A DNA stretch of 64,000 nucleotides from an uncultured Planctomycetota bacterium (GCA_963823665.1 CAWGMQ010000010.1:1088001-1152000), one strand, 5' to 3'. Counted from the stretch's first letter, positions 22,749 through 61,680 are shown. The notes: generated by a model from the sequence alone, not told the origin. Numbers and translations: made by a program.

Positions 22749-22798
22749 GCATTGGGCTGATACTGCCAGTACTGTTCCCAGTTTGTTCCCAAATTGAC
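22749..22798 (-). repeat. Arm-only copy of the tRNA-Leu att-like repeat
   Basis: gcattgggctgatactgccagtactgttcccagtttgttcccaaat matches 36379-36424 gcattgggctgatattgccagttctgttaccaatttgtcgccaaat. Confidence 0.7.
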
Positions 22799-23216
22799 CG
22801 CATGGCGATAGCGGTGGCGTTCGGGCAAGATGGACGCCAAGCACGACCGCGGCCCATGACCATCAATGAACTCCGACGTGGGCTAAACATCTGATGTCGA
22901 CCAACGACCCTGACTTCTACGATGCTCGTAAGTTTTCGCCGGAACCTTCCGCTGCGGCGCCCCGCCAGCACGGGTGCCTTTACGGGTGCTTTTTCCACGG
23001 GTGTCTCATCGTGAGTATCCTGGCGCTGCTCTATGTGATCATCGCGTTGTTCCTCTTATGGGGTCATTCGTCTGGAAGACTTGGTGATTAGTCATTGATC
23101 ATTGACAGATGGGGATGAGCACGCCAGGAGACCGAAATCCTTTCCTCTCGACAAAGCCTCCGACTCGTGATAGCATTTCGCTATCGTTCCTTCTACAGAC
23201 GCCCCGGGAGGTATTT

Positions 23217-23450
23217 ATGGGCCAGGTCTTGGTACGTGGACTGGACGACACCGTGATCGAGCGACTCAGGCAGCGAGCCGAAAGTCATCATCGCTCGCTG
23301 GAAGCTGAGTTGCGGGAGATCCTGGAGCAAGTGTCGCGGCAAGTTGATGTCGCGACGGCGCGGGATCTGGCTGATCGAATCCGCAGCAGGCTCGAGGGTC
23401 GTCTCCATAGTGATAGTGCGGAATTGATCCGCGAGGATCGCGAGCGATGA
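23217..23450 (+). CDS. FitA/Arc-like RHH antitoxin
   Basis: MGQVLVRGLDDTVIERLRQRAESHHRSLEAELREIL; ends DSAELIREDRER; overlaps toxin start (ATGA). Confidence 0.85.
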   Translation: MGQVLVRGLDDTVIERLRQRAESHHRSLEAELREILEQVSRQVDVATARDLADRIRSRLEGRLHSDSAELIREDRER

Positions 23451-23908
23451 GCAACGGAGGAACCTCGAACGGATTGCCCCCCACCGTCGACGTGGTGGTC
23501 GACGCCAGCGTCGCCGTGAAGTGGTTTGTCCCAGAGATCTACTCCGCTGAGGCGCTACGGTTGCTCGACGCGGGTGTTCGACGCCACATCCCCGTCCTGC
23601 TCCACACCGAGTTCGGCCAAACCATCTGGAAGAAGGTATATCAGCGAAAAGAGATAGTGCCGGCAGATGGCCGGTTGATTCTTCGTGGACTGATGGTGAC
23701 GCCGTTGGAGGTCCACGCCGTGATGCCACTGGTCGAACCCGCCTTCGACATCGCCTTGGGCACGGGCCGAACGGTTTACGACAGCATTTACCTTGCGCTG
23801 GCTGTTGCACTGGGCTGCAAGTTGGTGACGGCGGATCAGAAACTCTACAACGCCCTCCGAGCCAGTGTGTTCGCTGCTGATGTGACCTGGGTGGCCGACC
23901 CGATTTGA
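23447..23908 (+). CDS. vapC: PIN-domain VapC toxin
   Basis: VVVDASVAVKW, TVYDSIYLALA, LVTADQKL motifs. Confidence 0.9.
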   Translation: MSNGGTSNGLPPTVDVVVDASVAVKWFVPEIYSAEALRLLDAGVRRHIPVLLHTEFGQTIWKKVYQRKEIVPADGRLILRGLMVTPLEVHAVMPLVEPAFDIALGTGRTVYDSIYLALAVALGCKLVTADQKLYNALRASVFAADVTWVADPI

Positions 23909-24306
23909 GCGCCCTCAGACGTAGATTCTTTCATCGCTGACCCGAAAAACTCGCATGGATTCGTCGAGCTGACGTCAACCGACAATCGCCTGGCGAGCAC
24001 ATTCGACCTCCTCCATCAACTCGTCCACATCGACAACCGGCAACCGAAAGGGCCGGACACAGATAGGCCAAGCCTGAACCACGGCGCCACACCTCGACTC
24101 TACATCTCCAGGCATTGCCTGCCTGAGTGGCCATTGGGTGTGGCCGAGCGCGGACTTCAGCGGCATCCCGATCACCGAGCGACCGATCGAGGAGCGCTGC
24201 CGCGCGGTGTGGGTCATCAACATCGAACCCGGCCTGGTGGTGGCGTGTGTGATCTTCGAGGACGGTCGGGCGATCAAGCAAGGTGCGATTCACCCCAAGT
24301 CGCCAA

Positions 24307-24480
24307 TACCGAAGGTGGGACTTGAACCCACACCCTCTTGCAAGGACCGGATTTTGAGTCCGGGACGTCTGCCATCGGCCTGATATTGGCGACACGTTGC
24401 GGTGATACTTGAGGTACTTGATTTCGAGGCCGTTACGGTGCGGCCTCGATCTGCGCGTGTTGTCGCCACATTGGGCTGAC
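24307..24480 (-). repeat. tRNA-Leu(CAA) 3' fragment (24307-24374) plus arm; att-like copy A
   Basis: Reverse complement tggcagacgtcccggactcaaaatccggtccttgcaagagggtgtgggttcaagtcccaccttcggta; lacks 5' acceptor/D stem. Confidence 0.85.
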
Positions 24481-24792
24481 TCCTACCCGTTTGATTCCTT
24501 CTCTGGTCTGACGATCGACACTGGTGTGTTCAACAGCACTGACGGACAACTCGGAATCGCATTTACAACCACATCCACAGGATTCACGCAGGGTGGTTCT
24601 ACTAACAACATCGCGGGCATCTGGACTCCCTTAGCGGCCGTGCCCGAGCCCGCCTCAGCGATGCAGGCAGGAATCGCCGTTGCGATCGGCCTGGCGATGG
24701 CCGCGTTCCGCAAACGCAACGAGGCGACAGCGGCCAGTAAGGCCACTCGACGCAAACCAATAAGCGTTCGACTCGCACCAAGGCACGATTGA
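24481..24792 (+). pseudogene. 3' remnant of a PEP-CTERM surface protein
   Basis: ...AAVPEPASAMQAGIAVAIGLAMAAFRKR; no N-terminus, begins at the att arm. Confidence 0.7.
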
Positions 24793-25173
24793 TCGGTCGT
24801 GCTAAACACGTCGGCACCTACGGCCCGCCCGCGGGGGAGTCGCTGGGCGGCCATCAGCAGCGCCGCGGCCGCAGCCGATGTCGATGAGCCGCTCGTCGCC
24901 TTTGAGCTCAAGCCGATCGAGCAGCTCAGACCAGACGGCGAACTTGCCGGCGCGGGTGGCGTAGACGTAGCAGCCTGCGTTGAGAAACAGCCAGCGGGCG
25001 CCAAAGCCCAGGCCGGCAATGGAAATTCGGCACGGCACCACTGTCGCGCCCTCGCCGTGCCACAGCCGCCACACCAAGAGGGCAAGCAGGCAAGCGCCGC
25101 CGAGGACCATCAAGAGCGGAGCGTATGGTGCGTCGACGCCCTATGCGCCGCGGCGCGGCGGGATGGAGGTCAT
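24793..25173 (-). pseudogene. Truncated class I SAM methyltransferase
   Basis: MTSIPPRRGA*GVDAP..., LELKGDERLIDIGCGRGA; in-frame stop, frameshift, 3' truncation. Confidence 0.7.
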
Positions 25174-25228
25174 GGTAGGATCAACCGAGTGCGGGCGAGC
25201 CGCATCATATTCTTGGGGCGTGTGGCGT

Positions 25229-25252
25229 TAAAGGTTCCTGACACCTTTGTTC
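25229..25252. repeat. REP-like palindrome AAAGGTTCCTGACACCTTTGTTC (second copy 34851-34873)
   Basis: AAAGGT...ACCTTT inverted ends; near-identical copy aaaggtgtctgacacctttgttc. Confidence 0.65.
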
Positions 25253-25259
25253 TTTCCTG

Positions 25260-25470
25260 TGCAGCGGCCCCGCCGCCGCTACCGCGACGTGCTGCGCGCG
25301 CAGGTCGCCGCCACGCTTGAGAACCCGGACAAGGCGGCCGTCGAGGAGGAGCTCCGCGCCCTGTTCGCGGCCCTGGGGGGCTGACCGGAGCAAAAAATCG
25401 GCGCGCTGCGCGTCAGGTTCGGCGACGATTCCGTTACTTAGCGGGGTGGGCCCCGCGCCGCCCGCATGGG
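25260..25470 (+). pseudogene. Duplicated 3' end of the ECF sigma gene plus its downstream intergenic region
   Basis: Closely similar to 28409-28620 (RRYRDVLRxQVAATLExPDxAAVEEELRxLFAALGG*). Confidence 0.8.
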
Positions 25471-25592
25471 ACGGCCCCCAGAACCCAGGGCGGTACACGG
25501 CCGGCCAACGCCCGGGCGCTCGGTCTGCGCGCCTGCGGCGAACACGTTGCCATTACAACGCAGACGCATGGCACAAGGGGAGCAACAACACG

Positions 25593-27335
25593 ATGAGTTA
25601 CATCTTGAAGCGGGATCAGCGGAGCGGCGGGCGGGGTAGGTTCCACGGACGGCAACGGTGGCGAATGCGGCCGACGTTTCTGGAACTGGAGGGACGCGCG
25701 CTCTTGTCCACGATTGTCGTCAACAACCCCACCGACACGCCCGTCGCCGGCGAGACCGACCTGCGCCAGGCGATCGCCCTGGCGAATACGAACGGAGGAG
25801 CCGAGACGATCACGTTTGACAAAACGGTGTTCCGCACGCCGCAGACGATCAAACTTGATCCGGCCCTGGGCCAGCTCGGGCTGAGCGACCAGACCGGGAC
25901 CGAGACGATCACGGGCCCGAGGGCGGGCGTGACCGTAAAAGGCAACTACACGACGCCGGGCGTCACCAACAGTGTATTCGAGATCGAACCGGGCGCCACG
26001 GCAACTATTTCGGGCCTCACCATCACGGGCGGGAATAACAGCCACTACGGCGGTGGCGTCGACAACCAGGGCACGGTGACGCTCATCGACTGCACCGTCA
26101 GCGGCAACACATCCAATTACAGCGGCGTGTTCAATTACAAGTACGGCGGCGGCGGCGGCGTGTTCAATTCCGGCACGGCCGACCTCATCGGCTGCACGCT
26201 CAACGGAAATACCGCCTACAACAGAGCATACGAGTTCGGCGGCGGCTACGTCAACATCGCCGAGGGCGGAGGCGTGGAGAATTCCAGCACGGGGAGCCTG
26301 ACGCTGACCGGCTGCACCGTCAGCGGCAACTCCGCCGGCACGGGCGGCGGCGTATCGAGCTACGGCACGACGACGCTCACAGGCTGCACGATCAGCGGCA
26401 ACTTCGCGGCCTTCGGCGGCGGCGGCGTATCGAACTATTCCGGCACGACGACGCTCACAGGCTGCACGATCAGCGGCAACTCAGCAGCCTCGGGCGGCGG
26501 CGTGATCAACTACTTCGGCACAGCCACGCTCACCAATTGCACAATCGGCGGTAACACGGCAACGAAAAGCGGTCACTCCATCGGCGTTGCCGGCTATGGC
26601 ATCGGCGGCGGGTTGGACAACGCCGCCCCCAACGGCACGCTCAAGCTCACCAACTGCACCGTCAGCGGCAACTCCGCCGGCTTCGGCGGCGGGGTGGCCA
26701 GCGACTTTTATGGCGGCGCGGTCACGGTGACCAACTGCATCATTAGCAACAACCAGGCCACGGGCGTCAACGGCGAGGCATTGGGGGGCGGGATCTTCAT
26801 GGCGGCCGGGACTCTCGCGCTTTCCAGCAGCACGCTCGTTGGTAACTCGGCAACGGGCCCGAGTGTCGTCGGTGCCGGCGGCGGTGGTCTCGAGCTCGAA
26901 GGAGCGAGCGCGACCGTCACCAACACGACATTCCTGGGTAACATCGCCAAAGGCGGTGCCGGGGGAGCGGGAGCCAACGGCGGCGATGCCGTCGGCGGCG
27001 GGATTAACGTGGGCGGATCGACTCTGGATCTTTCCGGGGGCATGCTGATCGGCAATGTGGCCCAGGGCGGCGCGGGCGGCTCGGGAGCCAACGGCGGATT
27101 CGGCTACGGTGGGGGAATCTTCGTCAGCGCGGCTAGCTCGGCGACCCTCGAAGACACGGTCGTCAGCCTGAACCTGGCTTTGGGCGGCCTGGCCGGCGCC
27201 GGCGGTAGCGCAGGCGACGGCATCGGCGGCGGCCTCTACATCTGGCCCGGCGGCGTGGTTACCCTCAAGAAGACGACGGTCACGCTCAACTTCGCCTCCA
27301 CCAGCAACGACAACATCTATGGCACCGTGAGCTGA
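25593..27335 (+). CDS. Planctomycete secreted parallel beta-helix protein
   Basis: LELEGRALLS motif; repeated (L)TGCT(I/V)SGNxA..GGG units. Confidence 0.82.
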   Translation: MSYILKRDQRSGGRGRFHGRQRWRMRPTFLELEGRALLSTIVVNNPTDTPVAGETDLRQAIALANTNGGAETITFDKTVFRTPQTIKLDPALGQLGLSDQTGTETITGPRAGVTVKGNYTTPGVTNSVFEIEPGATATISGLTITGGNNSHYGGGVDNQGTVTLIDCTVSGNTSNYSGVFNYKYGGGGGVFNSGTADLIGCTLNGNTAYNRAYEFGGGYVNIAEGGGVENSSTGSLTLTGCTVSGNSAGTGGGVSSYGTTTLTGCTISGNFAAFGGGGVSNYSGTTTLTGCTISGNSAASGGGVINYFGTATLTNCTIGGNTATKSGHSIGVAGYGIGGGLDNAAPNGTLKLTNCTVSGNSAGFGGGVASDFYGGAVTVTNCIISNNQATGVNGEALGGGIFMAAGTLALSSSTLVGNSATGPSVVGAGGGGLELEGASATVTNTTFLGNIAKGGAGGAGANGGDAVGGGINVGGSTLDLSGGMLIGNVAQGGAGGSGANGGFGYGGGIFVSAASSATLEDTVVSLNLALGGLAGAGGSAGDGIGGGLYIWPGGVVTLKKTTVTLNFASTSNDNIYGTVS

Positions 27336-27344
27336 TGACCTGAA

Positions 27345-27400
27345 TGTGGGACGGCCGCCGCTATGACCGGACCGGACAGCCGGGGGCGGCTGTCCCACAT
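27345..27400. repeat. REP-like hairpin
   Basis: tgtgggac...ggacagccgggggcggctgtcccacat inverted repeat after the stop codon. Confidence 0.55.
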
Positions 27401-27783
27401 CGGTTGATTTTGACCTGTCGGGCGGATTAAACTTCGGGTCGACTATTCACTTGCCCGCTCGGGCGTAAAACTCGTGCCGGAAACGGAGCTGTCGATTCGG
27501 AGGGGGGAGGCATCTATAATCTCGGCACGTTTTCTATCGATACTCTCTCCGTGGTCATCGGCAACTTTGCCTCCACGAGCAACAATAATAAGTTCGGGGT
27601 CTGAATCATCTGGCGCGATTCTGGTAGGGTTCGACGGCTTCCGTTCGCCGCGGCAGGCGCGGCTCAACCTCGCGGCAGCATGGGGGGGTTGGATTGCCGG
27701 GCCGACATGCCGTACAGTGGGTTAAGGTGCCGGTCGGGACGGCGACGCGGACCCGCTCGGCCCGCGAACCCGAGAGGCCCGCC

Positions 27784-28534
27784 ATGTCCGACCCCGAGGC
27801 CAACCCCTCCCCGAAGGCGCCGTTCCCGACGACCCGCTGGAGCCGGGTGGCCGCGGCCGTCGACCCGGCCGAGCCCGGGGCCCGTGCGGCCCTGGAGGAG
27901 CTCTGCCGGGCCTACTGGTATCCGCTGTATGCCTTCATCCGCCGTCAGGGATGCCGGCCCGACGAGGCCGCCGACGTGACCCAGGAGTACTTCGTCCGGC
28001 TGCTCGACACCGGCCTCCTCGCCCATGCCGACCGCCGCAAGGGCCGCTTCCGGACCTTCCTCCGCACCGACTGCGGCTTCTTCCTGGCCCACCGGGCCCA
28101 ACGCGGCCGGGCCCGGAAGCGCGGCGGCGGGGCGGCGCCGCTCTCGATCGACGCCCGCGACGCGGAGGGCCGCTACCTTCGCGAGCCGGCCGACCCGGGC
28201 CTGACGCCGGACCGCCTCTTCGACCGGGCCTGGGCCGTGCGGCTGCTCGACGGCGTGCTGGAGCACCTGGCGGGCGAGTACGCCGACTCCGGCCGCGCCG
28301 CCCAGTTCGAGGCCCTCCAGGTCGTCCTCAGCGCGGTGCCCCGCTCGGTCCCCTATGCGACGCTGGCGGCCCGGCTCGGAACGACCGAGGGGGGCGTGCA
28401 GGCCGCCGTGCAGCGACTCCGCCGGCGCTGACCGCGACGTGCTGCGCGAGCAGGTCGCCGCCACGCTTGAGGACCCGGACGAGGCGGCCGTCGAGGAAGA
28501 GCTCCGCGACCTGTTCGCGGCTTTGGGGGGTTGA
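27784..28534 (+). CDS. ECF sigma factor, STK-associated type; +1 base near 28430
   Basis: FPTTRWS, ALEELCRAYWYPLY, KGRFRTFL, FDRAWA; cgctgaccgc versus cgctaccgc in the 25280 duplicate. Confidence 0.85.
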
Positions 28535-28630
28535 CCGGAAAAAAATCGTGGCCCCGCGCGTCACATTCGGCGACGATTCCGTCACTCAGCGAGGTGCGCC
28601 CCGTACCGCCTGCATGCGAGGACCTCCCTC

Positions 28631-31600
28631 ATGGCCACCGCCGCCCCCGACCGCTGCCCGAGCTGCGGCGCCCAGCGCCCCGCCGACGCCCCCCGCGGCC
28701 ACTGCCCCCGCTGCCTGCTGCGCCAGGGGCTCGACGGCGCCTCGCTGAGCCTCTCGCACGCCGGCGAGCTCGGCGCCGGCGTTGACTTCTGCGGCTCCCG
28801 CGTCCTGGAGACGCTCGCCGCGATCGTGGGCCCTGTGCCGCGCGTCCTGCTGCGCGATAGCGACGACGGTGCCGAGCCCCCCGTCCTCGTGTTGCCCGAC
28901 CGGGCCGCCGCCGACCCGTCGGTTCGCTACCGCATCGACGGCGAGATCGCCCGCGGCGGCATGGGCGAGGTGCTCAAGGGCCGCGACCCCGACCTCGGCC
29001 GCGACGTCGCCATCAAGGTCCTCCGCGACGACCTCAGCGGCCGCCGCGAGATGGTCCGCCGCTTCGTCGAGGAGGCGCAGATCGGCGGCCAGCTCCAGCA
29101 CCCGGGCATCGTCCCGGTCTACGAGCTGGGCACCTTCGCCGACCGCCGGCCGTTCTTCTCGATGAAGCTGGTCAAGGGCCAGACCCTCGCGCAACTGCTG
29201 GCCGCCCGGCCGTCGCCGGCCGACGGGCTGCCGCGGTCCCTGGGCATCTTCGAGCAGGTGGCGCAGACCGTGGCCTACGCGCACGCCCGGGGGGTGATCC
29301 ACCGGGACCTGAAGCCGTCGAACGTCATGGTCGGCTCGTTCGGCGAGGTCCAGGTCATGGACTGGGGCCTGGCCAAGGTGCTGCCCCGCGGCGGGGTAGC
29401 GGATGACGCGGCCGCCGGCCGGGAGCCCGATCGCGAGACGGTCATCGCCACGGTGCGCAGCAGTTTCGCCCCGGACGCGGAGCTGTCGCGGGCCGGCTCG
29501 GTGCTGGGCACCCCGTCCTACATGGCGCCGGAGCAGGCCCGGGGCGAGATCGCCGCGGTGGACGAACGGGCCGACGTCTTCGCCCTGGGCTCGATCCTCT
29601 GCGAGGTCCTGACCGGCTCGCCCGCGTTCACCGGCCGGACATCGGCCGAGACCCAGCATAAGGCCGCCCGCGGCGACACGGCCGAGGCGCTGCTTCGGCT
29701 CGACGCCTGCGGGGCCGACGCCGAGCTCGTGGTCCTGGCCCGCGACTGCCTGGCCGCCGAGCCGCCCGACCGGCCGCGCGACGCCGGGGCCGTCCGCGAG
29801 CGGATCACGGCGTACCTGGCCGGCGTGCAGGAGCGGCTCCACGCCGCCGAGATCGAGCGGGCGCGCGCAGAGGCCAGAGCCGCCGAGGAGCGGAGGCGGC
29901 GCCGGCTCCAGCTCGGCCTGGCCGCGTCGCTCTTGGCGCTGACGACCCTCGGTGGCCTGGCCTTCACCTACGAGCTGCAAAGGCGGCAGGCCCGCGCCGC
30001 GCGGGCCGACCGGCTGCTGACCGAGGCGACGTTGTTGCGCAACCAGGCCCGCGCGCAGCGCGAGGACGTCGCCCGCTGGGAGCGCGCCCGGGAGGCCCTG
30101 GACCGGATCGGCGAGGAGCTCGGCCCGTTGGTTTCGGCCCCGCTGGCGGCGATGCGCCGGGAAGTCGGGGCCGGGCTGGGGGCCGCCAAGGCCGACCGCG
30201 CGCTCCTGGATCGGCTGGTGGACATCCGCTCGGCCCAGGCCGACGACCCGGACGGCTCGGCCACCGACGCCGCATACGCCGACGCCTTCGCCGACGCCGG
30301 GATCGACCCCGACGGCGGCGACCCGGCCGGGGCCGGCGCCCGGGTCGCCGGCCGCCCGAAGCCGGTGGCCGCGGCCCTGGTCGCGGCGCTGGACCACTGG
30401 TCCGCCGTCCGCCGCGCCCGCCACCCGAAGGGCCCGGGCTGGGCCCGGCGGCTGGCCGCGGCCCGCGCCGCCGACCCCGACCCGGACCGCGACGCCCTGC
30501 GCGCGGCCCTGCTCGTGGAGGACAAGGCGGCGCGGCTGGGTCGGTTGCGGCCGCTGGCCGAGCGGGCCGACGCGGGGTCGTGGGCGCCGGCCAGCCTGGT
30601 CCTGCTGGGCGAGGCCCTGGCCGCCGCGGGCGACGCGGACGCGGGGATCGCGGTACTGCGGCGGGCTTCGTGGTCCCACCCGCAGGACGCCCGGGTCCAC
30701 TACGCGCTGGGCCAGTTGCTGGAGCGGGTGCGGCCGCCGCAGCCGGAGGAGGCGATCCGGGCTTACTCGCTCGCCTGGAGCCGGCAGCCGGAACTGGCCG
30801 GGCACGAGCTGGCCCACGCGCTGGAGCGGCGCGGCCGCGGAGCGGAGGCCGAGGCGGTCTGGCGCGACCTGGTCGGCCGCCGGCCCGACGACGGCCGCCA
30901 CCTGGGCTGCTATGGCCGCCACCTGACGGAGCGGGGCCGCGGAGCCGAGGCCGCCCCGATGCTCGACCGGGCGGTCGAAGCGTGCCGCGAGGCGATCCGG
31001 CTGCGGCCCGACGACCCCGTGGCCCGCAACAACCTCGGCAACGCCCTGCACATCTCGGGCGACCGGCCCGGGGCCATCGCCGAGTACCGCGAGGTGATCC
31101 GGCTGCGGCCCGACGACCCCCAGGCCCCCTATAACCTCGGCTTGGCCCTGGACGATTCGGGCGACCGGCCCGGGGCCATCGCCGAGTACCGCGAGGCGAT
31201 CCGGAGGAAACCCGACTACGCCGAGGCCCACACCAACCTCGGCTTGGCCCTGGAGGCCTCGGGCGACCGGCCCGGGGCGATCGCGGCGCTCCGCGAGGCG
31301 ATCCGGCTGAAGCCCGACCTGCCCCAAGCCCATTACAACCTCGGTTCAGCCCTGAACGACTCGGGTGATCGGCGCGGGGCGATCGCGGCGCTCCGCGAGG
31401 CGATCCGGCTGAAGCCCGACGACGCCTTGGCCCACAGCAAACTCGGCCTGGTCCTGGACGACTCGGGCGACCGGGCCGGGGCGATCGCCGAGTACCGCGA
31501 GGCGATCCGGCTGCGGCCCGACGACCCCGTGGCCCACAACAACCTCGGCTTCGCCCTGGACGCCTCGGACGACCGGCCCGGGGCGGTCGCCGAGTACCGC

Positions 31601-32488: not shown

Positions 32489-32691
32489 GCGTTCCGGGCG
32501 CAATTCCTCCGCGGCCGGGCCCGCGCCGGAATGCACTCGCTGACGCTTCGGGCTCGTAGGATCCGATCTTCGCGTTGCCAGTGGTTCGGGGGCAATTTTT
32601 GCCCGCCGGTCGCGCTAGCGACCGCCCCTGGTTGACGGAGCACACGCCTGTGGTCCCCGGAGAGGAAGGACACGCATCGCATTGGATGGCT

Positions 32692-32805: not shown

Positions 32806-32822
32806 CGTCCTTTGTCTTCGGA

Positions 32823-52900: not shown

Positions 52901-53337
52901 CAGCCGCAACCCGCGCCACCGCCTTGCGACAGCGGCCCAGGAATCGGCGCTGGGCCAATCGGACCGTTCAGCGGCATGATCGTAAGCGAACCGCCGGGCC
53001 GGGCCGAAAACGAGCCGCCACCACCCGGCCCTCCGCCCTTCAATACCGGGCCCGGGCTCGGTGTGAGGCCCGTGCGCCCGCCACCACCACCCATCGTGCC
53101 CCCGCCGCCTGTCGTCCCTCCACCAGGCGTCGTGCCGCCCGTCCCCGTCGTACCGCCCCCTCCGGTCGCCCCGCCGCCGGCGGTGCAACCCGAGCCCTGG
53201 TTAGACCCGCACGACGAATTCAGCGAACACTGCCCTTGCAATGTCAGCGGCGAACTGCCGTTGCCGCCAGCCTCGCCGGTATTGCCCAGCGCGGGCGGTG
53301 TCGGCTTGGTGTTATCGGGCGTGAATACGTTGGCCAT
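46974..53337 (-). CDS. RHS/YD-repeat polymorphic toxin with C-terminal HEXXH domain; frameshift in the C9 tract 47400-47408
   Basis: Many YDxxxR...DPLG repeats; YLRARYYNP...DPIG...NLYRY...DPSG core end; removing one base links to HECFH...ETEAPAY. Confidence 0.9.
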
Positions 53338-53384
53338 GGTTCAACCTCCTCGCTCTCCATCAGAGGCCCGCTGTTCTACATTTG

Positions 53385-53819
53385 TCAGTGATCGGTCGCA
53401 AAAAAATCGCTCTGCATGATTTCCCGGAGGAGCTCCTCCGCCCTTTCCATCCCTACGAACCGGGCGGCCTCGACTTTGAAGGCGTTTGGCGTGATTGACC
53501 GGGGCCGGCTCGGCCGCATCGGCGGCCTCGTCCCCCACATGCCCGTGGTCCCGGCAATGCCCGTCTTGCCGTCTCGCGTATCGGTGAACGTGATCTGTCC
53601 ACTTTTGCTCCGGTTGACGCGAAAGCGAACAGACTCGCACCCCGGACGGAAAATCTCGACGACGTTCGACCACACCGTGATTTCCTTGACGGGCCTGAAG
53701 ACCGCGAACGCGCTGTACACAAAACCGGGCCGGCCAGGGACAGGAACTCCACGCTCAATCGCCTCCGCGAGTGCCTTCTCTGCCTCGGCTCTCTAAGCCC
53801 GAGGAGGTTTCGCTTCCAT
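53385..53819 (-). CDS. Hypothetical protein upstream of RHS (in-frame TAG at codon 9 or a later start)
   Basis: MEAKPPRA*RAEAEKALAEAIERGVPVPGRPGFVYSAF... continues into ORF 53385-53720. Confidence 0.45.
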
Positions 53820-54188
53820 GGTCCACGCCACCAACTTCCGGCGGACTTGCCAACAGGGCATCGGTTCTAACCGATCGGTAGCCATCGAACCCCATCCTGT
53901 ATTAATATATATAGCACCATTTTTGCGCGGAATCTTGGTCCGCCGCGAGTGCGTTCGTTCCGCAGCTTACTGAAATGACACAGCGAAACGCATTCGCCCA
54001 AGCTGCCGCGCGAGCAACCCGGCGATCACCGCATTTCGCTCAAAACGCCACGACCAGAACCAGAAAAGGCCCCCGCGGCAAACCCTGGCTTCCATGCGAA
54101 GCCAGCCGCATTCCCGGCGCGGGTCCACGCGCCACGGCATCCCAACACATCCACATTCATATTGCTATTCTAGGCTTCTTATTTACGC

Positions 54189-54216
54189 ATCGTACCTCCG
54201 GAAAAGACGATGTCAA
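54189..54216 (-). promoter_or_regulatory. Sigma70-like promoter facing the RHS cluster
   Basis: TTGACA-N16-TACGAT on the minus strand with an A-rich upstream tract. Confidence 0.45.
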
Positions 54217-54511
54217 GGGAGCCCTCAGGGTTCTGAGAATTTTTATTTTTTAGAGTGTTCGATGCATCTGCCACGTAGCGATTTTGGGGCCCAGGCCCGG
54301 CTTCCGGATAAATGGGTTGCCTGGCGAATATGTAACGCACTTTCAACGGCAGCCAGGAAGTGAGCCACTTTCGCAGCCAGAATTGAACCACTTGAATGGT
54401 TGCCGCGTGAAGCACAGACAAGGTGCTTCGGGATGTGACGGCCGTCGTTCGATGAAGCGTGGATCAAATCAAGTCGACTGGCTGATCCCTAGCTCCGGCG
54501 TCGACGCTATT

Positions 54512-55327
54512 TCACTTCTTCGGTCGCTTGACGGCCGATGCTTGTTCGCCCCGATGCGCCCGATACGACTTGCCGTTGATCTTCATGATGATCGCTCCGT
54601 CGACAACTCGGTCCAAGAACGCCATTGCCAACGGTGGATCGCCCCAGTAGTCGCCCCATGCGTCGAAGTCGATGTTCGTCACCAATGCCGTCGACCGCCC
54701 ACTGCGGACGTTGATCAGCTTGTACAACAGGCTGGCCGCTTGGGGCGATTCGATCCGTTCCAGTCGGTCGAAGCCGACCTCGTCGAGAATCAACAGATCG
54801 AATTTGGCATAGTATCGCAAGTGGCTCGGCAACGTCTGGTCCGCCAGCGCTGCTGTCAGTTTTTGCAAAATTGAGCTGCTGGTCTCGTACCGCACCCGGT
54901 AACCCAGCACACAGGCACACTGGCCAATCGCTTGGATCAGATGACTTTTGCCGACGCCGCTTTGACCCACCCAAACCAGACTTTGATGCCGGCCGATGAA
55001 CTCCCCTTCGGCTAATGCCTCGATCCGCACTCGATCGATAACCGCCGCATTGAACTGCCAATCGAAGTCAGCCAGCGTTTTGTTTTCAGCGAAGCTGGCT
55101 TCGCGGATACGGTGGGCAATCCTGCGATCACGACGCCCGTTGGCTTGCTCGCTGATCAGCAACCGTAGGAATTCCAGGTGGGATAGCCCGTCGCTCTCGG
55201 CACGGCCTACAACCGCGTCGAGTTGCTCGGACCGCAGGGGAATGCCCAGCACCTCGAAGTCCTCAAGGATCTTCTGGCGCAGTTCCGTCCCCGCCGGCTT
55301 CGCCTTGGGCGCTGGTCGGGTCTTCAT
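54512..55327 (-). CDS. istB: IS21 helper ATPase
   Basis: GQSGVGKS Walker A, LLILDEVG Walker B, LDRVV, GKSYR. Confidence 0.93.
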   Translation of the reverse strand: MKTRPAPKAKPAGTELRQKILEDFEVLGIPLRSEQLDAVVGRAESDGLSHLEFLRLLISEQANGRRDRRIAHRIREASFAENKTLADFDWQFNAAVIDRVRIEALAEGEFIGRHQSLVWVGQSGVGKSHLIQAIGQCACVLGYRVRYETSSSILQKLTAALADQTLPSHLRYYAKFDLLILDEVGFDRLERIESPQAASLLYKLINVRSGRSTALVTNIDFDAWGDYWGDPPLAMAFLDRVVDGAIIMKINGKSYRAHRGEQASAVKRPKK

Positions 55328-56825
55328 CCTCGTGCTCCTCCGGCTCGCAAAGGTATTGGTAGCCTGACGTCGGGCGCGGGGACACCTTATCCTCGCCCAG
55401 CCAAGGAGGCAGCGGACGCTCTTCGTCGGCCAGCACCTCCAAGATAGTCTTCGGTCGAGCTTGGACCGACAGGATACGTGCCGCCGCCGCATGAGAATAA
55501 GCACCATATCGGACCGCTCGCTCCAACGCGGCGATCACGTCTGTTCGGGTGTAGGTTCCCAATAGTGCCAGCACTCGCTGCGCCTGGTCCTTACCGTATC
55601 GCTGAACTCTCAGCAGCCCTTCCAGGAACCGACGGCCCACTTCGCCCAGCTCGCCAAAGCGTTCCTCCAGTTGCGCCTGTCGCCGGTGTGTGCTTTCGTT
55701 AGGCCGGTGCTCCTTGTGCACGCTCCGTTGCCCTCTGGCCGTGCGCGGCAACAGCGCGTGCCGGGTGATCTCCTCGACCTGAGGACCGTAAACGATCACC
55801 TCGGTCTCGGTCACCCGCACCGGCAACACGCAGCCGATGTACCGCCAAGGCACTGAGTAGCCGTTCTGGCAGTAAGTGACCAAGCCTTCGACGTCGACTG
55901 TGCGATAGATAACCGGGGCGACCACATAAGCTTGGTTTGGTAACGGGATCAGGTGGGGAAGTTCCTCCTGATGCAGCTGCAAGGGCGTCTTGCCGGCGGC
56001 GCGGAGCTCGCGGACATCCGCGACCTGCGCCAGCCACCAATCGGTGGTCTCATTCAGATGACTGAGCGATTCGAAGCTGCGGCCGTTGAACAAGCTGGTT
56101 TCAACGTAATAAAACGGGCGTTCCACCTTTCCCTTGGTTTGAGGCCGCCGCACGCGGCAGGCCACTGGCCGGAATCCGTAGTGGGTGGCGAAGGCCAGGA
56201 ACCGCGGGTTGTAGATCGGCACGTCATCCTCGTGACCACTGACCACAACTTTCATATTGTCATACAAGCAGGTAGCGGCCACGCCTCCCAGATGCATAAA
56301 GGCCCGCACGTGCTCACGCAGGGTGGTCACCATGTCCTGGGCCTCGACGAAGCGCAGATACTGCCGCCGTGAATAGCCCAGGATGTAGCTGAACAAATTG
56401 ACGCGGCGCCGGCCTTCACAAGTGAAGTCCAGATCGTAGACGGCGTAATCCATCTGAGCCTGGACACCCGGCCCAGTCTCAAAGCGGATGACCGGCTGTG
56501 GTCCCGAGCCCGGACGGAGCTCGCGTAGCCGCTGGCGGACCGTGCTATAGCTGCCCGGGAAGCCCTGCTGGCGCAGCTCTTCCAAGAGCCGTACGCCGGT
56601 CAAATCGGGATATCGGCCCAGGAGCTCGAGGATGACCGGCTCGTAGGGATCGAGCTGGCTGGGTCGTCTGCGCGAGGTCGACGCCTTGCCGGCCCGCTGG
56701 GCATCAATCCCGACAAGCACCCGGCTCACCGTGTTCCGTGCCAGTCCCAACTCGCGGGCGATCTGTCGCATTGATGCACCGCCGCGCCAGCGGCTGACAA
56801 TCTCATTGCGCTTTTGCTCGGTCAT
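55263..56825 (-). CDS. istA: IS21 DDE transposase
   Basis: HTH SMRQIARELGLARNTV; FETGPG.QAQMD, LYDNMK, TKGKVER. Confidence 0.93.
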   Translation of the reverse strand: MTEQKRNEIVSRWRGGASMRQIARELGLARNTVSRVLVGIDAQRAGKASTSRRRPSQLDPYEPVILELLGRYPDLTGVRLLEELRQQGFPGSYSTVRQRLRELRPGSGPQPVIRFETGPGVQAQMDYAVYDLDFTCEGRRRVNLFSYILGYSRRQYLRFVEAQDMVTTLREHVRAFMHLGGVAATCLYDNMKVVVSGHEDDVPIYNPRFLAFATHYGFRPVACRVRRPQTKGKVERPFYYVETSLFNGRSFESLSHLNETTDWWLAQVADVRELRAAGKTPLQLHQEELPHLIPLPNQAYVVAPVIYRTVDVEGLVTYCQNGYSVPWRYIGCVLPVRVTETEVIVYGPQVEEITRHALLPRTARGQRSVHKEHRPNESTHRRQAQLEERFGELGEVGRRFLEGLLRVQRYGKDQAQRVLALLGTYTRTDVIAALERAVRYGAYSHAAAARILSVQARPKTILEVLADEERPLPPWLGEDKVSPRPTSGYQYLCEPEEHEDEDPTSAQGEAGGDGTAPEDP

Positions 56826-57735
56826 GATTGTTCAACTCTCCGATGAGGTCCTGAGCCAAAGAGGCCACGCTGGAGGCATCACGCGCCAACTTGGAGAATG
56901 CTGACGTCAGCACCAAGTGATCGCAGGGGGTCAAGCCGGCGCGGCCCTGACTGCGCAGCCAGGTCTCGATGCGACCCAGGTCCTCAAGGACGTAGGTGAG
57001 ACGTCGCGCCACGCGGTTGCCCGAACTGCTTAGCCTTGGGTCCCAGGCCCAGCCAGTCTCCTCCCGTGCTTGCCGCAAGGCCTGGCGCGGCTGGGCCAAG
57101 ATGTACTCTTCCTGAGTCTGACCGGGCGCCGCTTGGAGCAGATTCACGACGCCATCGAGCTCGGCAGCCGTCAGCTTGTCGCGGCGGAGCGTTGCAAGAA
57201 GCTCAGGTTGGTTGCCGGCCGGCAACCGCACCAGCGAGCGAGCGGCCGTGACCGACAACAGCCCCAATCGCAGGTCGTTCTTGGCCGCGTCGGCCAGCTT
57301 CTCGACCAGGGCCAGCCGACGGCAGACCCAGCTCTTGTGGTGGGAGAGCAGCTCGGCGACCTCCTCCTGCGTCAGACCGTCCTCGCGCACCAAGGCGTGC
57401 ACGATCCAAGCTTCCTCCCACTCTTGAGTCCGCCTGCCGGTTTGATTGAGGCCCAGGATCGTCGCCTTGGCCAGGCGCTCATTAACTTCCACGACCCGCG
57501 TGCTGACGGTCAGGAAACCGAGTGTCTGCGCGGCTGCCAGACGCTTGAAGCCGTCGAGAACCTCGTATCTTTCCTCTCGCAGGCAGACGACTACGGGAGT
57601 TTGCTGTCCATAGCGACTCAGGGATGCCGCCATGGCGGCCTCGGCGTCGGGATCGGGAAGGCGATAGCGCCGATACCGCTGACCCAGTTGATCCACCGCC
57701 ATGAAGCGGATGTCCGTCGTGTACGAGTCTGTCAT
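56803..57735 (-). CDS. ParB/Srx N-terminal domain + HTH protein inside IS21
   Basis: SLSRYGQQTPVVV...YEVLDGFKRL; LTQEEVAELLSHHKSWVCRRL; overlaps istA start. Confidence 0.85.
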   Translation of the reverse strand: MTDSYTTDIRFMAVDQLGQRYRRYRLPDPDAEAAMAASLSRYGQQTPVVVCLREERYEVLDGFKRLAAAQTLGFLTVSTRVVEVNERLAKATILGLNQTGRRTQEWEEAWIVHALVREDGLTQEEVAELLSHHKSWVCRRLALVEKLADAAKNDLRLGLLSVTAARSLVRLPAGNQPELLATLRRDKLTAAELDGVVNLLQAAPGQTQEEYILAQPRQALRQAREETGWAWDPRLSSSGNRVARRLTYVLEDLGRIETWLRSQGRAGLTPCDHLVLTSAFSKLARDASSVASLAQDLIGELNNHDRAKAQ

Positions 57736-57840
57736 GAGAAACCTGGTCACAAAGGCCCAATCCGAGTAAGGAAACGGGAGACCGGAGGGCCCGGCCCTCC
57801 CGCTTCCTCCTCGGTTCTTGGGCAAGAACAAACATAAGTA

Positions 57841-58557
57841 TTAGGGGGTAACGTCCTCTATACGTGACGACATGAGAAGGGGATGTTGAGGCGGTCCGCG
57901 GCGATGCATATAACGGGGAAGAACCCCGCGCCGGCGTCGTTGCCGGAGTCGAAGTTCGCGTTGTCGAACTCGTCGTAACGCTTGGTGGCACGAGTAGGAA
58001 CAGAATTTCTGATCGGGAGAACGCCCCGAGGGAAGGAATAACATGTAGCAGCCAGGTCTGTGGCAAGGCAGACCGCAAGATTGTTCGGGTATTTTGGCTG
58101 GGCGCTGGCCCTCGGCGGGTGTTGAGGCGAGCGGAGGCGGCTCGGATGCGGTGGATGTCTGCGACTCGACGACTGGGGAAGTCAGCTCGACGTCGCAGGC
58201 TGGCGGCGCCGGTTCAGCAAGAAATGATCGTTGCTGGAGACGGATTCGATAGCGTCGGGCCTGCTCTCGCCGGATTGCCTTCCCATGGGTAGTAGCCTTG
58301 AAGCGCTGGCAGGAAAGCCAGCGGCGCCAGCGGCAGGCGGATTCCTGACAGGCCGGGCTGCAATATCGCGCCTGAGGCCGGCACGGCAAGAACCAGACTT
58401 CACAGCCTTTGAGCAGGCAACGGTGGCAGTTGGGGTGCCAACGCCGAGATCGGGGTGATTGACCCGACGGTGATGCGCGCGGAAACTGAGAATGGCCCAC
58501 GGGAGGGATTGCTCCCGAGCGGTCAGGCGGCGGGAAGGTGGAACTTCCCGCCGCCAC
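57841..58557 (-). CDS. Cys/Arg-rich protein with two putative zinc fingers inside IS21
   Basis: CLLKGC..F......YCSPAC and CHRPGC..LF......KFCSYSC. Confidence 0.6.
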   Translation of the reverse strand: MAAGSSTFPPPDRSGAIPPVGHSQFPRASPSGQSPRSRRWHPNCHRCLLKGCEVWFLPCRPQARYCSPACQESACRWRRWLSCQRFKATTHGKAIRREQARRYRIRLQQRSFLAEPAPPACDVELTSPVVESQTSTASEPPPLASTPAEGQRPAKIPEQSCGLPCHRPGCYMLFLPSGRSPDQKFCSYSCHQALRRVRQRELRLRQRRRRGVLPRYMHRRGPPQHPLLMSSRIEDVTP

Positions 58558-59033
58558 TTTGCGCCGTGGATTGAAAGAGCCGTCATCGGCGACTGAGCGG
58601 CAATTACACTCCAGCCTACCTGCATTGAATCACACGTGCCAGAAACTTGGTAAAGACGCTGAGAGAGAGCCAAACCCACCATCGACCGATCGCGGAATGG
58701 CTCAGGTGGCTCTGCGATAATGGCTCAGCGTTTCGTTGCTGCTGACAACGCACCGTACGACTCGCGCCCTACCTGCTGCCGCACGCGCCACGCTCCCAAG
58801 GTCTATTTGTTGGCGCTTCGTTGAGCTCTTTCTCCGGTTCAGCACAGCCCGTATGCGACCTGCACGCCCAGAAGAACTTCAGGTTATCGGTTTTGAGCTC
58901 ACTCTTCGCGGGCAAGCAACATTGCTCCTTGAACGGCTACGAGCTTACAATCAAAGGTAGTCGCAAAACGGGGCGGCATGGCGATTGTGACGCTTTCGTT
59001 CCAGAGACTTTGATCGGCTCGGGAGGATAACCA

Positions 59034-59294
59034 ATGGCCACGGTGACCGGTAGGATCTTCAAACTAGCTGATCGTCAGGGCGGCGACGCCTGCGTTCATG
59101 GCACGCGCATTCCGGTTTGGGTTCTGGAGAACTGTCGCCGTCTGGGTATGCCCCATGCCCAAATACTGTCGACGTACCCATCGCTCTCGCCTCCCGACCT
59201 GGAAGCCGCCTGGGATTACGTCGCAGCCAACCGGGAAGAGATCGAGCAGGCCATCCGCGAAAACGAAGAGGGCGACGACGGCCGCGTGGAGTAA
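59034..59294 (+). CDS. DUF433 antitoxin (copy 2)
   Basis: GGDACVHGTRIPV...; near-identical to 35039-35299. Confidence 0.88.
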   Translation: MATVTGRIFKLADRQGGDACVHGTRIPVWVLENCRRLGMPHAQILSTYPSLSPPDLEAAWDYVAANREEIEQAIRENEEGDDGRVE

Positions 59295-59300
59295 CGGCGG

Positions 59301-59639
59301 ATGCTGCTCTACGCGGACGAGGACTTCGCTTTTCCCGCGGTCGAGGAACTTCGAGTACGGGGTCACGACGTGCTAACGGCTCAGGAAGACGGTCAAACGG
59401 CGATGCCGGATGCTGTCATTCTGGCCCGCGCCTTTGCGCTTGGTCGTGTCGTTTTGACTCACAATCGACGCCACTACGTACGCCTGCATCATCGAGGGGC
59501 GGCGTACGTCGGTATTCTGGCAGCATCGCAGGATTCCGATCATCTGGCCCTGGCCAGTCGGATCGGTCGTTCTGCGGACACCATACGCAACTGCCCCAGG
59601 AGTTCTGGTGTTCTGCATACCATCATTGACCCAGCCTAA
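59301..59639 (+). CDS. DUF5615 PIN-like toxin
   Basis: LYADED, LRVRGHDV, VVLTHNRRHY motifs. Confidence 0.82.
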   Translation: MLLYADEDFAFPAVEELRVRGHDVLTAQEDGQTAMPDAVILARAFALGRVVLTHNRRHYVRLHHRGAAYVGILAASQDSDHLALASRIGRSADTIRNCPRSSGVLHTIIDPA

Positions 59640-59711
59640 CCGCGCAACCAAAGTTGCCCGGTTCGCGGTTGGGCATGTTTCGCCACGGCCGGAGTCTGCT
59701 AACATCGATTC

Positions 59712-60440
59712 ATGGCGAAAGCGAAGAAGAAACAGCCTTTACGGAAGGCGTCAGAGCCGCCCAGCGAAAGGCCAGTCGAGGCCGTATCCGTCACGTCGGC
59801 AGACAAGCCGCCTCCGGCCACCGGCGAGCTCAGCAAATCGTCGGCCGCTTCTGGCCAATTAGCAACCAGAATCGAGGGAAGCCCCAACGCGGACGAAAAG
59901 CATCGATTACTATACCAAGGTGCGAGCGGTCAGATGGCCGTGATGTCCGAGTTCCTCTTCCGGCTCATCAATGTGGCGGTCCCCGAGGTGGATGTCGGGG
60001 ATGACGTCTTCGTTGTCCGGGAGAAGGACGAAGCGGTTACCCGCGTTCAAGTCAAATACGCGGCGGCGGACGAACAGCAGAACGGCGAATATGTCGCACA
60101 ATTCTCGCTCCCATGGAAGCAGCTCGATCGGCCGGACGACACGCCGGCTCTGGTTTACGTGCTTGCCGTCCGATACACCCAAAAATGGACCGATTTCATC
60201 GTAGTCCGACGTTCGGTCCTGCGGCAGTTACAAGCAAAGTATGCTGTAGGGTCTATAGCCAAGAAAGACGGGGATGCGGTTGCTCTGGCGCTGCGACTCG
60301 TGTTCACGACGGAGAGCGTGAAGGGCAAAGGAAAGTTCTCGTTTCAGCCGCACCGAAACGCGTTTGATCCTTGGCCGCCACCTCAGCTATCTAACGAGGC
60401 CGAAGTATCAACGCTGGGAAAGGACGTTAGCGAGCGCTGA
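59712..60440 (+). CDS. Putative PD-(D/E)XK-fold nuclease
   Basis: GASGQMAVMSEFL...PEVDVGDD...RVQVK. Confidence 0.6.
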   Translation: MAKAKKKQPLRKASEPPSERPVEAVSVTSADKPPPATGELSKSSAASGQLATRIEGSPNADEKHRLLYQGASGQMAVMSEFLFRLINVAVPEVDVGDDVFVVREKDEAVTRVQVKYAAADEQQNGEYVAQFSLPWKQLDRPDDTPALVYVLAVRYTQKWTDFIVVRRSVLRQLQAKYAVGSIAKKDGDAVALALRLVFTTESVKGKGKFSFQPHRNAFDPWPPPQLSNEAEVSTLGKDVSER

Positions 60441-60456
60441 GCGCGGACGCGTCTCC

Positions 60457-61002
60457 TCATGTCTTAAGCGGCTCGTCATGAAATACCCTCTTCCCGGCGG
60501 GGTCTACCACTCGGTAACCTCCCAGGCTTTCGATTTGCGGCTCGGACAGTCCAGTCAGAATCATCGCGACCTGGTCCAAAATCGGTCCGTGTGCCGTCTC
60601 GAGGTCGAATTGAGTGATCGTGGCAATGAAAAGATTCGGGGCGAGGTTGGCTCCAGGAAAGCTCTTGAGGATCAGATTTCGGCTCGTCGGGCTCAGACTG
60701 TAGTTACACCCGTCGCTGCGACAACTTACGAGGATCTCGATTGGGCCCAATGGTCCCGGTACGCCGCCATGTGGCAACGGATACACTTGCCACCTGTCAT
60801 TCTCGGTATCGCACCTGAGCTCGGCCGCAAACTTCTTGGCTGCTGATTCCTTATCCCAAGCGTAAAGCCACCTCTTTTTTGTCACCGGGTCCGCGACTCG
60901 TTGGGCGTTGGCAACATTGACGCCGTTTTTCTCCAAGAGGCGAATGTACGCTTCGAACTCGAAGTCACGAGCGCCACCCGGAAGACTGACGGTGAAAACC
61001 AT
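60457..61002 (-). CDS. Hypothetical protein
   Basis: 181-aa ORF with globular composition; no recognisable motif. Confidence 0.55.
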   Translation of the reverse strand: MVFTVSLPGGARDFEFEAYIRLLEKNGVNVANAQRVADPVTKKRWLYAWDKESAAKKFAAELRCDTENDRWQVYPLPHGGVPGPLGPIEILVSCRSDGCNYSLSPTSRNLILKSFPGANLAPNLFIATITQFDLETAHGPILDQVAMILTGLSEPQIESLGGYRVVDPAGKRVFHDEPLKT

Positions 61003-61507
61003 GACATCATTCTCCGGGCCTACAGGTCGTACGATTGGCGATGACTGCTGTTCCAGATATTATACAGCGAGTTGACTCGGCATTCAGCCTCGTCGCCGCG
61101 ATTGTGCGTTGAGCCGCGAACGTGTCCGAACGGAAGGTTCCGAGCTTCGGTGGACACCATAATGATCTGCACTCCGCCTGGCCCCGGGCCGCATCATGAC
61201 CATCACCCTTCTTGAGTCCTTCGCATTGCCAATTGGCGCGGGCGAGAGTGGACTCGGGTTCCCGGGCACACCATGCCGACCTCCAACTTCGCCTGGCTCC
61301 AGGCCGCGCCATGGCGATCATCCTAGACCGGCGGGACAGCCAATCGGCACCGCCGAGAGTCGGCCCGAAGAGGTCCCGATCGCCGGGCTGCGATTCGAGA
61401 AGTAGGGCCGCAGGGCGTGGTTCGCGAAGGTCGACGCGGGCGAGCCCTGCTGGCTTTCACGGACTGGCGAACAACGAATCCGGCCGTGATTCGCCTCGAG
61501 CAACGAA

Positions 61508-61680
61508 TACCGAAGGTGGGACTTGGACCCACACCCCCATTACAGGGACCGGATTTTGAGTCCGGCGCGTCTGCCATCCGTCTGACGTTGGGCTGATGTT
61601 GATTTGACGTTGATTTCAGTGATTTCGCAGGGGTTTACGATAACCCCCGCTGTGATTCGCATTGTAGTCGCATTGGGCTG
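61508..61680 (-). repeat. tRNA-Leu(CAA) 3' fragment plus arm; att-like copy D
   Basis: taccgaaggtgggacttggacccacacccccattacagggaccggattttgagtccggcgcgtctgcca. Confidence 0.85.

Follow-up and report, generated by a model that had tools for sequence, protein, structure and literature searches.

How does a bacterial genome come to hold several halves of the same tRNA gene in a row, with neither the whole gene nor an integrase beside them? The question is raised by a stretch of 64,000 nucleotides from an uncultured Planctomycetota bacterium (GCA_963823665.1, CAWGMQ010000010.1:1088001-1152000; hereafter the window), in which four fragments of a tRNA-Leu(CAA) gene, each joined to a conserved arm, delimit intervals of cargo genes. 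An earlier reading made from the DNA alone (the sequence-only reading) proposed an integron-like platform on which cassettes are stacked by an integrase acting in trans. Our analysis points to a different answer: the sites are probably attR-type junctions bounding integrase-free relics of integrative mobilizable elements (IMEs), moved in cis by a visiting IME that docks at the fragments. Fragments scattered over the genome are likely to serve as extra landing sites for the passing integrative element.

The source genome (G000; 16.46 Mb, 12 contigs, 92% complete), whose sequence suggests an Isosphaeraceae planctomycete as host, was compared with a family set of 121 genomes; G001 is its sister genome in the same genus, and G033 belongs to another genus than G001. 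C3, C4, C5, C6, C8 and C10 are contigs of G000, the window array lying on C10. Sites linked at 50 kb were counted as one cluster, and arm profiles were made from the copies in G000.

Four tRNA-Leu half-sites and their arms

The 17-nt anticodon stem-loop (the core) occurs in four exact copies in the window, at 24347, 36257, 36942 and 61549 (sites A to D), all in the same orientation, against 0.02 expected by chance. Both the four tRNA-Leu 3' fragments with arms and the invariant stem-loop of the sequence-only reading are thereby confirmed. Read on the minus strand, each copy belongs to a tRNA-Leu(CAA) part that starts in the D-loop at tRNA position 15 and runs through to the 3' end, with the 3' strand of the D-loop before the core and the tRNA 3' part after it. 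These parts lie at 24305..24375 (core 24347-24363), 36216..36285 (core 36257-36273), 36899..36970 (core 36942-36958) and 61506..61579 (core 61549-61565), and their identity to the host tRNA is 96, 89, 86 and 92%, respectively. No intact tRNA gene was found within the window, and an Rfam search at the four sites gave no match; folding z values for the whole sites were -0.9, -1.6, -3.3 and -1.5. The core-to-core spacings of 11,910, 685 and 24,607 bp agree with the intervals first described, which were also correctly said to lack an integrase: no tyrosine or large serine recombinase was detected in them when 65 of 275 open reading frames (ORFs) of the window were scanned and six-frame genome searches were made.

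The arm motif CATTGGGCTG is present exactly at 22750, 24469, 36380 and 61671, as had been noticed, but this 10-mer alone is at chance level (7 matches versus 4.5 expected), and the arms therefore rest on profile hits, which fall into two classes that the single motif did not convey. All are on the minus strand. Class A, with TTGGGAACA-type direct repeats, comprises the arms of site A (24378..24523) and site B (36288..36438) together with an arm-only remnant at 22723..22807 (E 2.5e-13 for armA profile positions 8-92; direct repeats at 22792 and 22781) that has lost its core and tRNA part and bears out the arm-only copy reported near 22749. Class B, with TTCTGCA-type direct repeats, comprises the arms of site C (36973..37118) and site D (61578..61727). 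The distal direct repeats are intact only at site B (36422 and 36411), site D (61712 and 61701) and the remnant at 22750; they were searched for but not found at site A and are degenerate at site C. A site thus begins with the repeats of the arm, a region predicted to bind the integrase, and continues with TGGCAGANG, two unconstrained spacer nucleotides, the anticodon stem-loop of 17 nt and the tRNA 3' part.

Each arm also contains an inverted repeat (24424-24449, 36335-36360, 37022-37041 and 61627-61650 at sites A to D), formed by 8 bp around a 6-nt NNCGTA loop, that covaries across lineages. It is paired in 82% over 48 distinct arms, with 54 double-change cells versus 9-21 in slid controls; the shuffle of halves gave 52% versus 69% Watson-Crick pairs, from few clades. 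The repeat is weaker in 25 other arms, and RNAalifold returned no structure for mixed arms, the signal being visible only in the register-fixed count. By its sequence, it may be a hairpin or a lineage-specific protein site.

Position of the crossover and origin of the tRNA alleles

In 88 of 92 arm hits with a core after them, each position of the stem-loop differs from the tRNA in 0-4 sites, versus 52 and 55 of the 88 sites for the two nucleotides immediately 5' of the stem. Two hybrids are informative, one joining a TAA-type left stem to a CAA-type right stem (L166) and the other combining TAA stems with a CAA loop (L071). Because the spacer varies, the stem-loop is kept and such hybrids occur, the crossover is placed in the anticodon stem-loop, as in the anticodon-centred class of the Islander collection, and the tRNA-derived att junctions of the sequence-only reading hold. 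Its claim that the T-arms had decayed was overstated: identity to the host tRNA is still 86-96%, and the variable arm of site D is that of the intact tRNA in five other genomes of the family. In the census of 101 fragment sites, 14 variable arms are exact to a foreign allele (G021 excluded) and 13 to the host's own. Part of the apparent decay thus consists of foreign tRNA alleles, and variable arms record past hosts.

Many sites lose tRNA likeness directly past the stem. The left core motif recurs in inverted form in 8 of 29 sites without a T-arm versus none of 76 with one, and one such symmetric, tRNA-less end occurs in five genomes, behind a core every time. These ends may come from off-target capture or from selection once restoration of the tRNA was no longer needed. 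The idea that tRNA-less left ends are captured promoters of extracytoplasmic function (ECF) sigma genes was dropped, as just 1 of 9 precedes an ECF gene. As a separate observation, site 2220559 of G086 C5 (L148) has a repeat-rich insert of ~90 bp between core and T-arm, and a related insert opens a site in G030.

Blocks bounded by the sites

Sequence comparison shows near-identical blocks that start or stop at the sites, both inside a single genome and between genera of related soil bacteria. Site D and 2,405 bp behind it, including the left end of the block at 59144..61577 (minus strand), recur on C3 at 99.5% identity, while the two arms are only 84.6% alike, that on C3 being a different class B arm; identity turns perfect at the D-loop motif. 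A complete 4.6-kb core-to-core unit with ECF and kinase genes and no integrase is shared by G001 and G033 at 95.6% with different neighbours, and a 3.6-kb unit ending at a core is shared at 97.6% by G000 and G033 and at 94.7% by G000 and G021. The baseline for these values is the 80-90% identity of syntenic DNA between G000 and G001. In G089, a 1.29-kb core-to-core unit recurs with different neighbours, and units duplicated at 99% are found.

In total, 22 site pairs share, on one side, 600 bp or more at 88% identity. Two of them reach a contig end and one runs through, so that 19 of the 20 informative pairs break at the site (two of the 19 at the outer end of the arm). Alignments end inside sites on both partners in 16 of 43 cases, compared to a null mean of 0.03 and a maximum of 2 in 2000. 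These shared borders support the proposal, already made from the window, of serial integrations and of integrase-free blocks as mobile units. In addition, 556 bp of the site D left end appear without any change in a public soil run, which covers only 34% of the site D stretch.

Dispersal through the genome and nesting in other islands

G000 contains 28 matches to the 17-mer (at most one mismatch) across seven contigs and, with diverged copies included, 31 fragment sites in 15 clusters. Copies are therefore scattered genome-wide and apart from the intact tRNA, an outcome that the sequence-only reading had itself named as refuting and that tells against a single tRNA-anchored platform, but they remain tied to one integrase family. 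The sole intact tRNA-Leu(CAA) of G000 lies on C8, and the 39 kb behind it have no arm, fragment or integrase. An intact tRNA-Leu(CAA) was detected in 88 of the 121 family genomes, as a single copy in all but one. Exact 17-mer counts are 25 in G089, 23 in G000, 16 in G033, 12 in G086, 11 in G030 and 9 in G001, all of them genomes of 12-16 Mb in few contigs, and 0-3 in most of the family set; other large genomes have only 1-3. G086 carries both a canonical array behind the intact tRNA and further clusters elsewhere. In the genome collection searched, 68 of 76 matches to the arm-plus-core pattern are in records titled Planctomycetota or Isosphaeraceae, and 8 are in records with titles of other phyla. 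Three of the sites (L227, L230 and L273) share a contig of 854 kb whose record bears the title Actinomycetota, which may reflect mis-binning or a wider host range. The pattern is absent from viral contigs, and a phage vehicle is therefore unsupported.

The window array itself lies in the island of another tRNA. The sequence-only reading had advised a search beyond position 64000 for an intact tRNA-Leu and an integrase; neither was found in the 187 kb upstream of site D on C10. Instead, an intact tRNA-Ala(TGC) is present 20 kb upstream of site D on the same strand; after it come two tRNA-Ala fragments with arms of their own, ECF/kinase units and then site D. G001 is syntenic up to window position 20,404 and again around and beyond the tRNA-Ala gene; the gap between is filled by 33.7 kb of other DNA in G001 versus 60.9 kb in G000. 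Since the flanks are syntenic and no Leu site or arm was found in the 33.7-kb gap of G001, the Leu array is an insertion within a tRNA-Ala hotspot. Similar nesting is seen elsewhere: tRNA-Ala att sites lie ~270 bp behind Leu cores on C6, a tRNA-Ala fragment lies ~340 bp behind one Leu core in G030, and a CAA array stands behind tRNA-Leu(TAA) in G021. Upstream of some class A arms there is a tRNA-Pro-like 3' end, accompanied by what we take to be the C-terminus of a serine recombinase. Related arms are found in G000 at CAG, TAA and Gln sites as well.

Several observations concern other tRNA-derived pieces. Fragments of tRNA-Ala(TGC) are likewise scattered, and tRNA-Pro 3' ends are found away from tRNA-Pro genes (Ala and Pro att pieces of G000 at C10:1161683-1169333, C5:506862, 1119890 and 1135301, and C6:341978 and 353061); such pieces would make up a multi-tRNA att network. 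A region of G000 (C5:829164-950717) holds several tRNA gene arrays with tyrosine recombinases nearby and one Leu att cluster inside. Just upstream of the C8 att cluster, a tRNA-like gene with ~33 extra anticodon-loop bases (L052:18711-18814, that is, C8:196711-196814, minus strand) scores 49.5 bits with the Rfam tRNA model and was overlooked by ARAGORN; it was not found in five relatives.

The cognate integrase and its element

Only one cognate integrase is present in G000 (P0001, C4:535074), and none is near the window array. It matches PF00589 with readable R, K, HxxR, H and Y residues, and its context comprises a class A arm, a core, a tRNA part and a copy of the class A repeat in the integrase-side arm (the P' arm), with no intact tRNA. 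The element is 38.9 kb long, is closed by another class A site and encodes Int, a convergent HTH_17 Xis, TraG/VirD4, a TrwC relaxase, RepA, ParA and restriction genes; no mating-pore family was detected among the 30 of its 36 ORFs scanned. By this gene content (its own Int and Xis, a relaxase and no mating-pair system), it is classified as an IME. One homologue of the integrase is named from Singulisphaera. Homologues of P0001 in relatives follow intact tRNA-Leu (CAA, TAA, CAG, GAG or TAG) or tRNA-Gln genes, and four of the six metagenome integrase loci with readable upstream DNA (14 loci in all) follow an intact tRNA-Leu(CAA).

Integrases also stand behind fragments, in three independent loci. 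There are two integrase lineages, with 57% identity between them, and the P' arm of each has the class A or the class B repeat. One locus with a class A P' arm (L308) follows a class B arm and fragment, and one of the other lineage with a class B P' arm (L314) follows a class A arm and fragment; each arm class therefore has its enzyme, which docks at the sites of the other class. The structure model of the integrase (pLDDT 87) predicts an N-terminal arm-binding-type domain of three strands plus a helix, and its matches to Tn1549 and lambda Int rank above that to the integron integrase IntI. The score of the integrase with the integron-integrase family TIGR02249 is 39.5 bits, versus a cut-off of 265. 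In a well-supported subclade of 13 Isosphaeraceae integrases, and confined to it, the C-terminal catalytic box is preceded by a basic insertion of ~30-40 residues (residues about 325-360 in P0001, L056). IntI has an extra domain in the same region according to the available part of PMC4889954, a likeness of position.

Stepwise loss is shown by stubs of integrase genes, about 9 to 42 codons long, and by a single internal piece. P' repeats follow only 7 of the 101 fragment sites, six of which have a whole or stub integrase, and 94 lack a P' arm. At site A, ~45 bp beyond the site match the left end of the IME and end short of the P' repeats. Matches between the IME and the blocks consist of integrase stubs, left ends and, in larger blocks, relatives of the rep/relaxase region; no oriT-like piece common to the IME and small blocks was seen.

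Origin of the arrays

Because P' repeats are rare (7 of 101) and the left end at site A stops before them, the blocks look like deletion products. We propose that deletion would strip IMEs of int and the P' arm and so leave blocks that resemble cis-mobilizable elements (CIMEs), in which the fragment acts as a new attB. A newly docked IME would supply P', exit together with the downstream blocks, deposit them at another fragment and depart alone, a course that corresponds to the three-step accretion of PMC5704250. Fragments would be carried along in islands that use other target genes (tRNA-Ala, tRNA-Leu TAA/CAG and tRNA-Pro) and spread also by off-target recombination, relocated fragments seeding local arrays; the relaxase and coupling protein of the IME, with an outside conjugation helper, could carry composites between genera. 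Under lambda-type rules, excision requires P'. Given these rules, the lack of a P' arm at the fragment sites favours action in cis over action in trans.

The sequence-only reading preferred trans, and in a modified form this alternative, which we hold to be unlikely without dismissing it, would describe a dispersed network resembling attC clusters from which the integron integrase is absent (CALIN): an integrase supplied by a resident or passing IME excises P'-less blocks and reinserts them at any fragment. Its fullest version, equally doubtful, would make the tRNA-Leu halves of giant Isosphaeraceae genomes dozens of domesticated landing pads, some of them symmetric and tRNA-less, between which an integrase with an IntI-like insertion shuffles signalling and toxin-antitoxin cassettes. 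Complete units that recur with both neighbours different (4.6 kb in G001/G033 and 1.29 kb in G089) fit such a network, as do the 99.5% left end shared by two G000 arrays without an adjacent integrase, the symmetric ends that cannot restore a tRNA, the covarying inverted repeat in the arms and the subclade insertion in the region of the extra IntI domain (partial text of PMC4889954). A change of neighbours also follows from serial cis-mobilisation, however: repeated rounds alter both neighbours, and whole shared units are therefore no proof of trans action. The convergent Xis gene and arm repeats indicate attL/attR chemistry, the predicted arm-binding domain places the model nearer Tn1549 and lambda Int than IntI, the integron-integrase score is far under its cut-off, and the blocks are large and multi-gene. 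Integron-like stacking in trans, as first proposed, is unsupported on the same counts, with no IntI, multi-gene blocks of median 5 kb and 94 of 101 sites without P'; carriage by a visiting IME accounts for the observations through biology already known. It is improbable that the fragments are inert, being decayed tRNA-Leu islands of past hosts spread by gene transfer, insertion sequences (IS) and rearrangement. Sites A and C without intact distal repeats, many truncated sites, the IS21, DDE and RIT-type genes inside arrays and the canonical arrays at an intact tRNA (G086) would suit such relics; the sharp identity switch at the core between 99.5% copies and the integrases behind fragments at three independent loci would not, and synteny with G001 on both flanks means that the array was not brought by rearrangement. 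More improbable still are chimeric joins at a short repeat, arising in assembly or binning, that mimic dispersal and sharing across genera. All high-copy genomes are incomplete assemblies, contigs terminate within arrays in G033 (three) and G089, the C12/C15 duplicates of G089 may be two haplotypes of one locus, and 8 of the 76 pattern matches are in records titled other phyla. Against this, the sites differ mutually by 15-30% and lie inside contigs of 1.8-3.1 Mb, the locus keeps synteny with G001 on either side, blocks common to two genera diverge by 2-6%, and the 556 bp of the site D left end recur without change in the public soil run.

Several points weigh against the cis-mobilisation of IME relics that we prefer. 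The choice between cis and trans is argued from the missing P' arm and general lambda-type rules. The high-copy genomes are 73-93% complete, the shared-block pairs are not independent (about ten distinct blocks stand behind the counts), and regions were selected by 17-mer matches, which inflates core conservation. G089, with 25 copies and 99% duplicates, has no full cognate integrase. Neither an excised circle nor an allele of this strain with an empty site was observed; public runs cover at most 34% of the site D stretch, as contigs only. A search for the empty target of two tRNA-less left ends found only arm- or core-joined copies (in 3 of 121 genomes), and a further left-end search gave 15 hits, nine att-joined and six unrelated coding matches; off-target capture is unproven because no empty target was found. 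Finally, several G000 clusters (on C3, C4 and C6) have no tRNA gene in the 20-40 kb upstream with ARAGORN defaults, and passenger spread is therefore documented for some clusters only.

Cargo of the window

Over 62 measured intervals, block length ranges from 0.7 to 38.9 kb (median 5.0 kb), with genes on either strand. In the window, the last block (1.5 kb) carries a FitA-like ribbon-helix-helix antitoxin and PIN toxin pair (23109..23908, plus strand; PF22513 and PF01850). The 11.9-kb integrase-free block between sites A and B (24524..36215) contains an ECF sigma gene (27694-28431), a Ser/Thr-kinase-TPR gene (28631-32488), a protease-like ORF (35743-36189), small ORFs without assignment and a partial duplicate of the 58911-59331 module; the kinase and protease labels come from sequence reading, Pfam having given TPR and a weak sigma match only. 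Its left end is 80% alike to a block end in G033. Between sites B and C lies a relic mini-block (36439..36898; 685 bp core to core), in which 36633-36723 is 70% identical to 35621-35711, a remnant paralogous to the left end behind site B.

The 24.6-kb integrase-free block between sites C and D (37119..61505) encodes an RHS/YD protein of 2,042 aa (47209-53337) whose C-terminus has no family match, an IS21 element with a preceding ParB-like gene (54512-57831; a three-gene unit 74% alike to one in G001) and a DUF5615-type toxin-antitoxin-like module (58911-59563), along with GT2/TPR/methyltransferase, GT4, PD-(D/E)XK and NifU-like genes and two ORFs without assignment. Beyond site D, the 3' part of a kinase-TPR gene (61918..64000, minus strand) belongs to the ECF/kinase unit that joins the upstream tRNA-Ala island to site D; this unit is 83-89% alike to units of the C6 array.

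Three further features were observed in the window. An Acido-Lenti-1 RNA match (43023-43069; 41.5 bits) has a similar second copy at 43107-43156. An AcrB-family gene with an internal deletion lies in three pieces at 20991-22493; it has near-identical relatives that occur in pairs at other places in G000 and in four relatives. At 270-5583, two paralogous genes for MBG-domain surface proteins stand in tandem and share 89% over 1.5 kb.

Comparison with known systems and implications

Tandem accretion of CIMEs with IMEs and integrative and conjugative elements (ICESt1/ICESt3 type) is described, and a three-step accretion model stated, in the part of PMC5704250 available to us. As there, integrase-less blocks lie between att junctions, an IME enters at a junction, decay proceeds by deletion and composites are transferred. 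The window blocks contain no integration or transfer genes apart from IS21 in the largest, and they are bounded by junctions whose arm repeats equal the cognate P' repeats; the attR side is complete at B and D and degenerate at A and C, and the attL side lacks P' repeats at all four. The CIME tandems in that text stand at the target gene; here, 15 clusters are away from the empty target, one of them inside the island of another tRNA, with the tRNA on C8, the IME on C4 and the array on C10. Two cross-inserting integrase lineages and P'-less and tRNA-less ends are further differences from the tandems covered there.

The ssrA islands of Dehalococcoides, as far as presented in the available text of PMC3146451, similarly show many target fragments, a conserved upstream motif and 15 module-less islands read as CIMEs, but their repeats lie within 100 kb of ssrA, without in-strain duplication and with a serine recombinase, whereas the present sites are spread over the genome and served by a tyrosine integrase, and their blocks occur in duplicate. 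The Prochlorococcus tycheposons share transient elements, partial tRNAs, integrase fragments and tRNA-seeded islands with our arrays; their partial tRNAs do not leave the island of the cognate tRNA, and integrase, host and transfer route differ (bioRxiv 10.1101/2020.12.28.424599, partial text). Integrons and CALIN also have site arrays without a nearby enzyme and units exchanged between arrays and genomes, but compared with the account in PMC4889954 (in part), our arrays have no IntI, attI, attC or Pc, and consist of tRNA-derived sites and multi-gene units of 0.7-39 kb. The absence of attC was judged from the tRNA origin and folding z only, that of IntI from the score of 39.5 versus 265, and the intervals, with their median length and genes on both strands, are not single-ORF cassettes. 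Anticodon-centred islands of the Islander collection (PMC4383910, in part) likewise displace a 3' tDNA fragment by crossover at the anticodon, and canonical cases exist in G014, G018 and G086. The collection requires an intact tDNA, an integrase and a fragment within 200 kb on one replicon; the window blocks carry no integrase and lie on a contig without a cognate tDNA, and the method would therefore reject them. That part of PMC4383910 lists, among 3,919 islands, just 4 tandems of at least three.

The system thus works like CIME accretion served by an IME, yet away from the target gene, and is not an integron. New are the genome-wide dispersal, the nesting in the islands of other tRNAs and the tRNA-less symmetric ends; neither cognate fragments dispersed from their tRNA nor such planctomycete arrays were found in the literature searched, which included few subscription papers and no supplements. 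Island finders that need a tRNA and an integrase overlook such arrays, and the blocks are substrates for asking whether an arm-dependent integrase moves P'-less passengers in cis or in trans. If the trans network were true, an integron-like system built from island parts would help to drive genome expansion; the link with genome size is a correlation only, as other large genomes carry 1-3 copies. Accretion is usually seen at one target gene. Here, fragments escape from it, nest in the islands of other tRNAs and keep drawing elements, so that a single integrase specificity acquires 15 points of entry into a genome of 16 Mb, and the situation is similar in five more genomes of 12-16 Mb.

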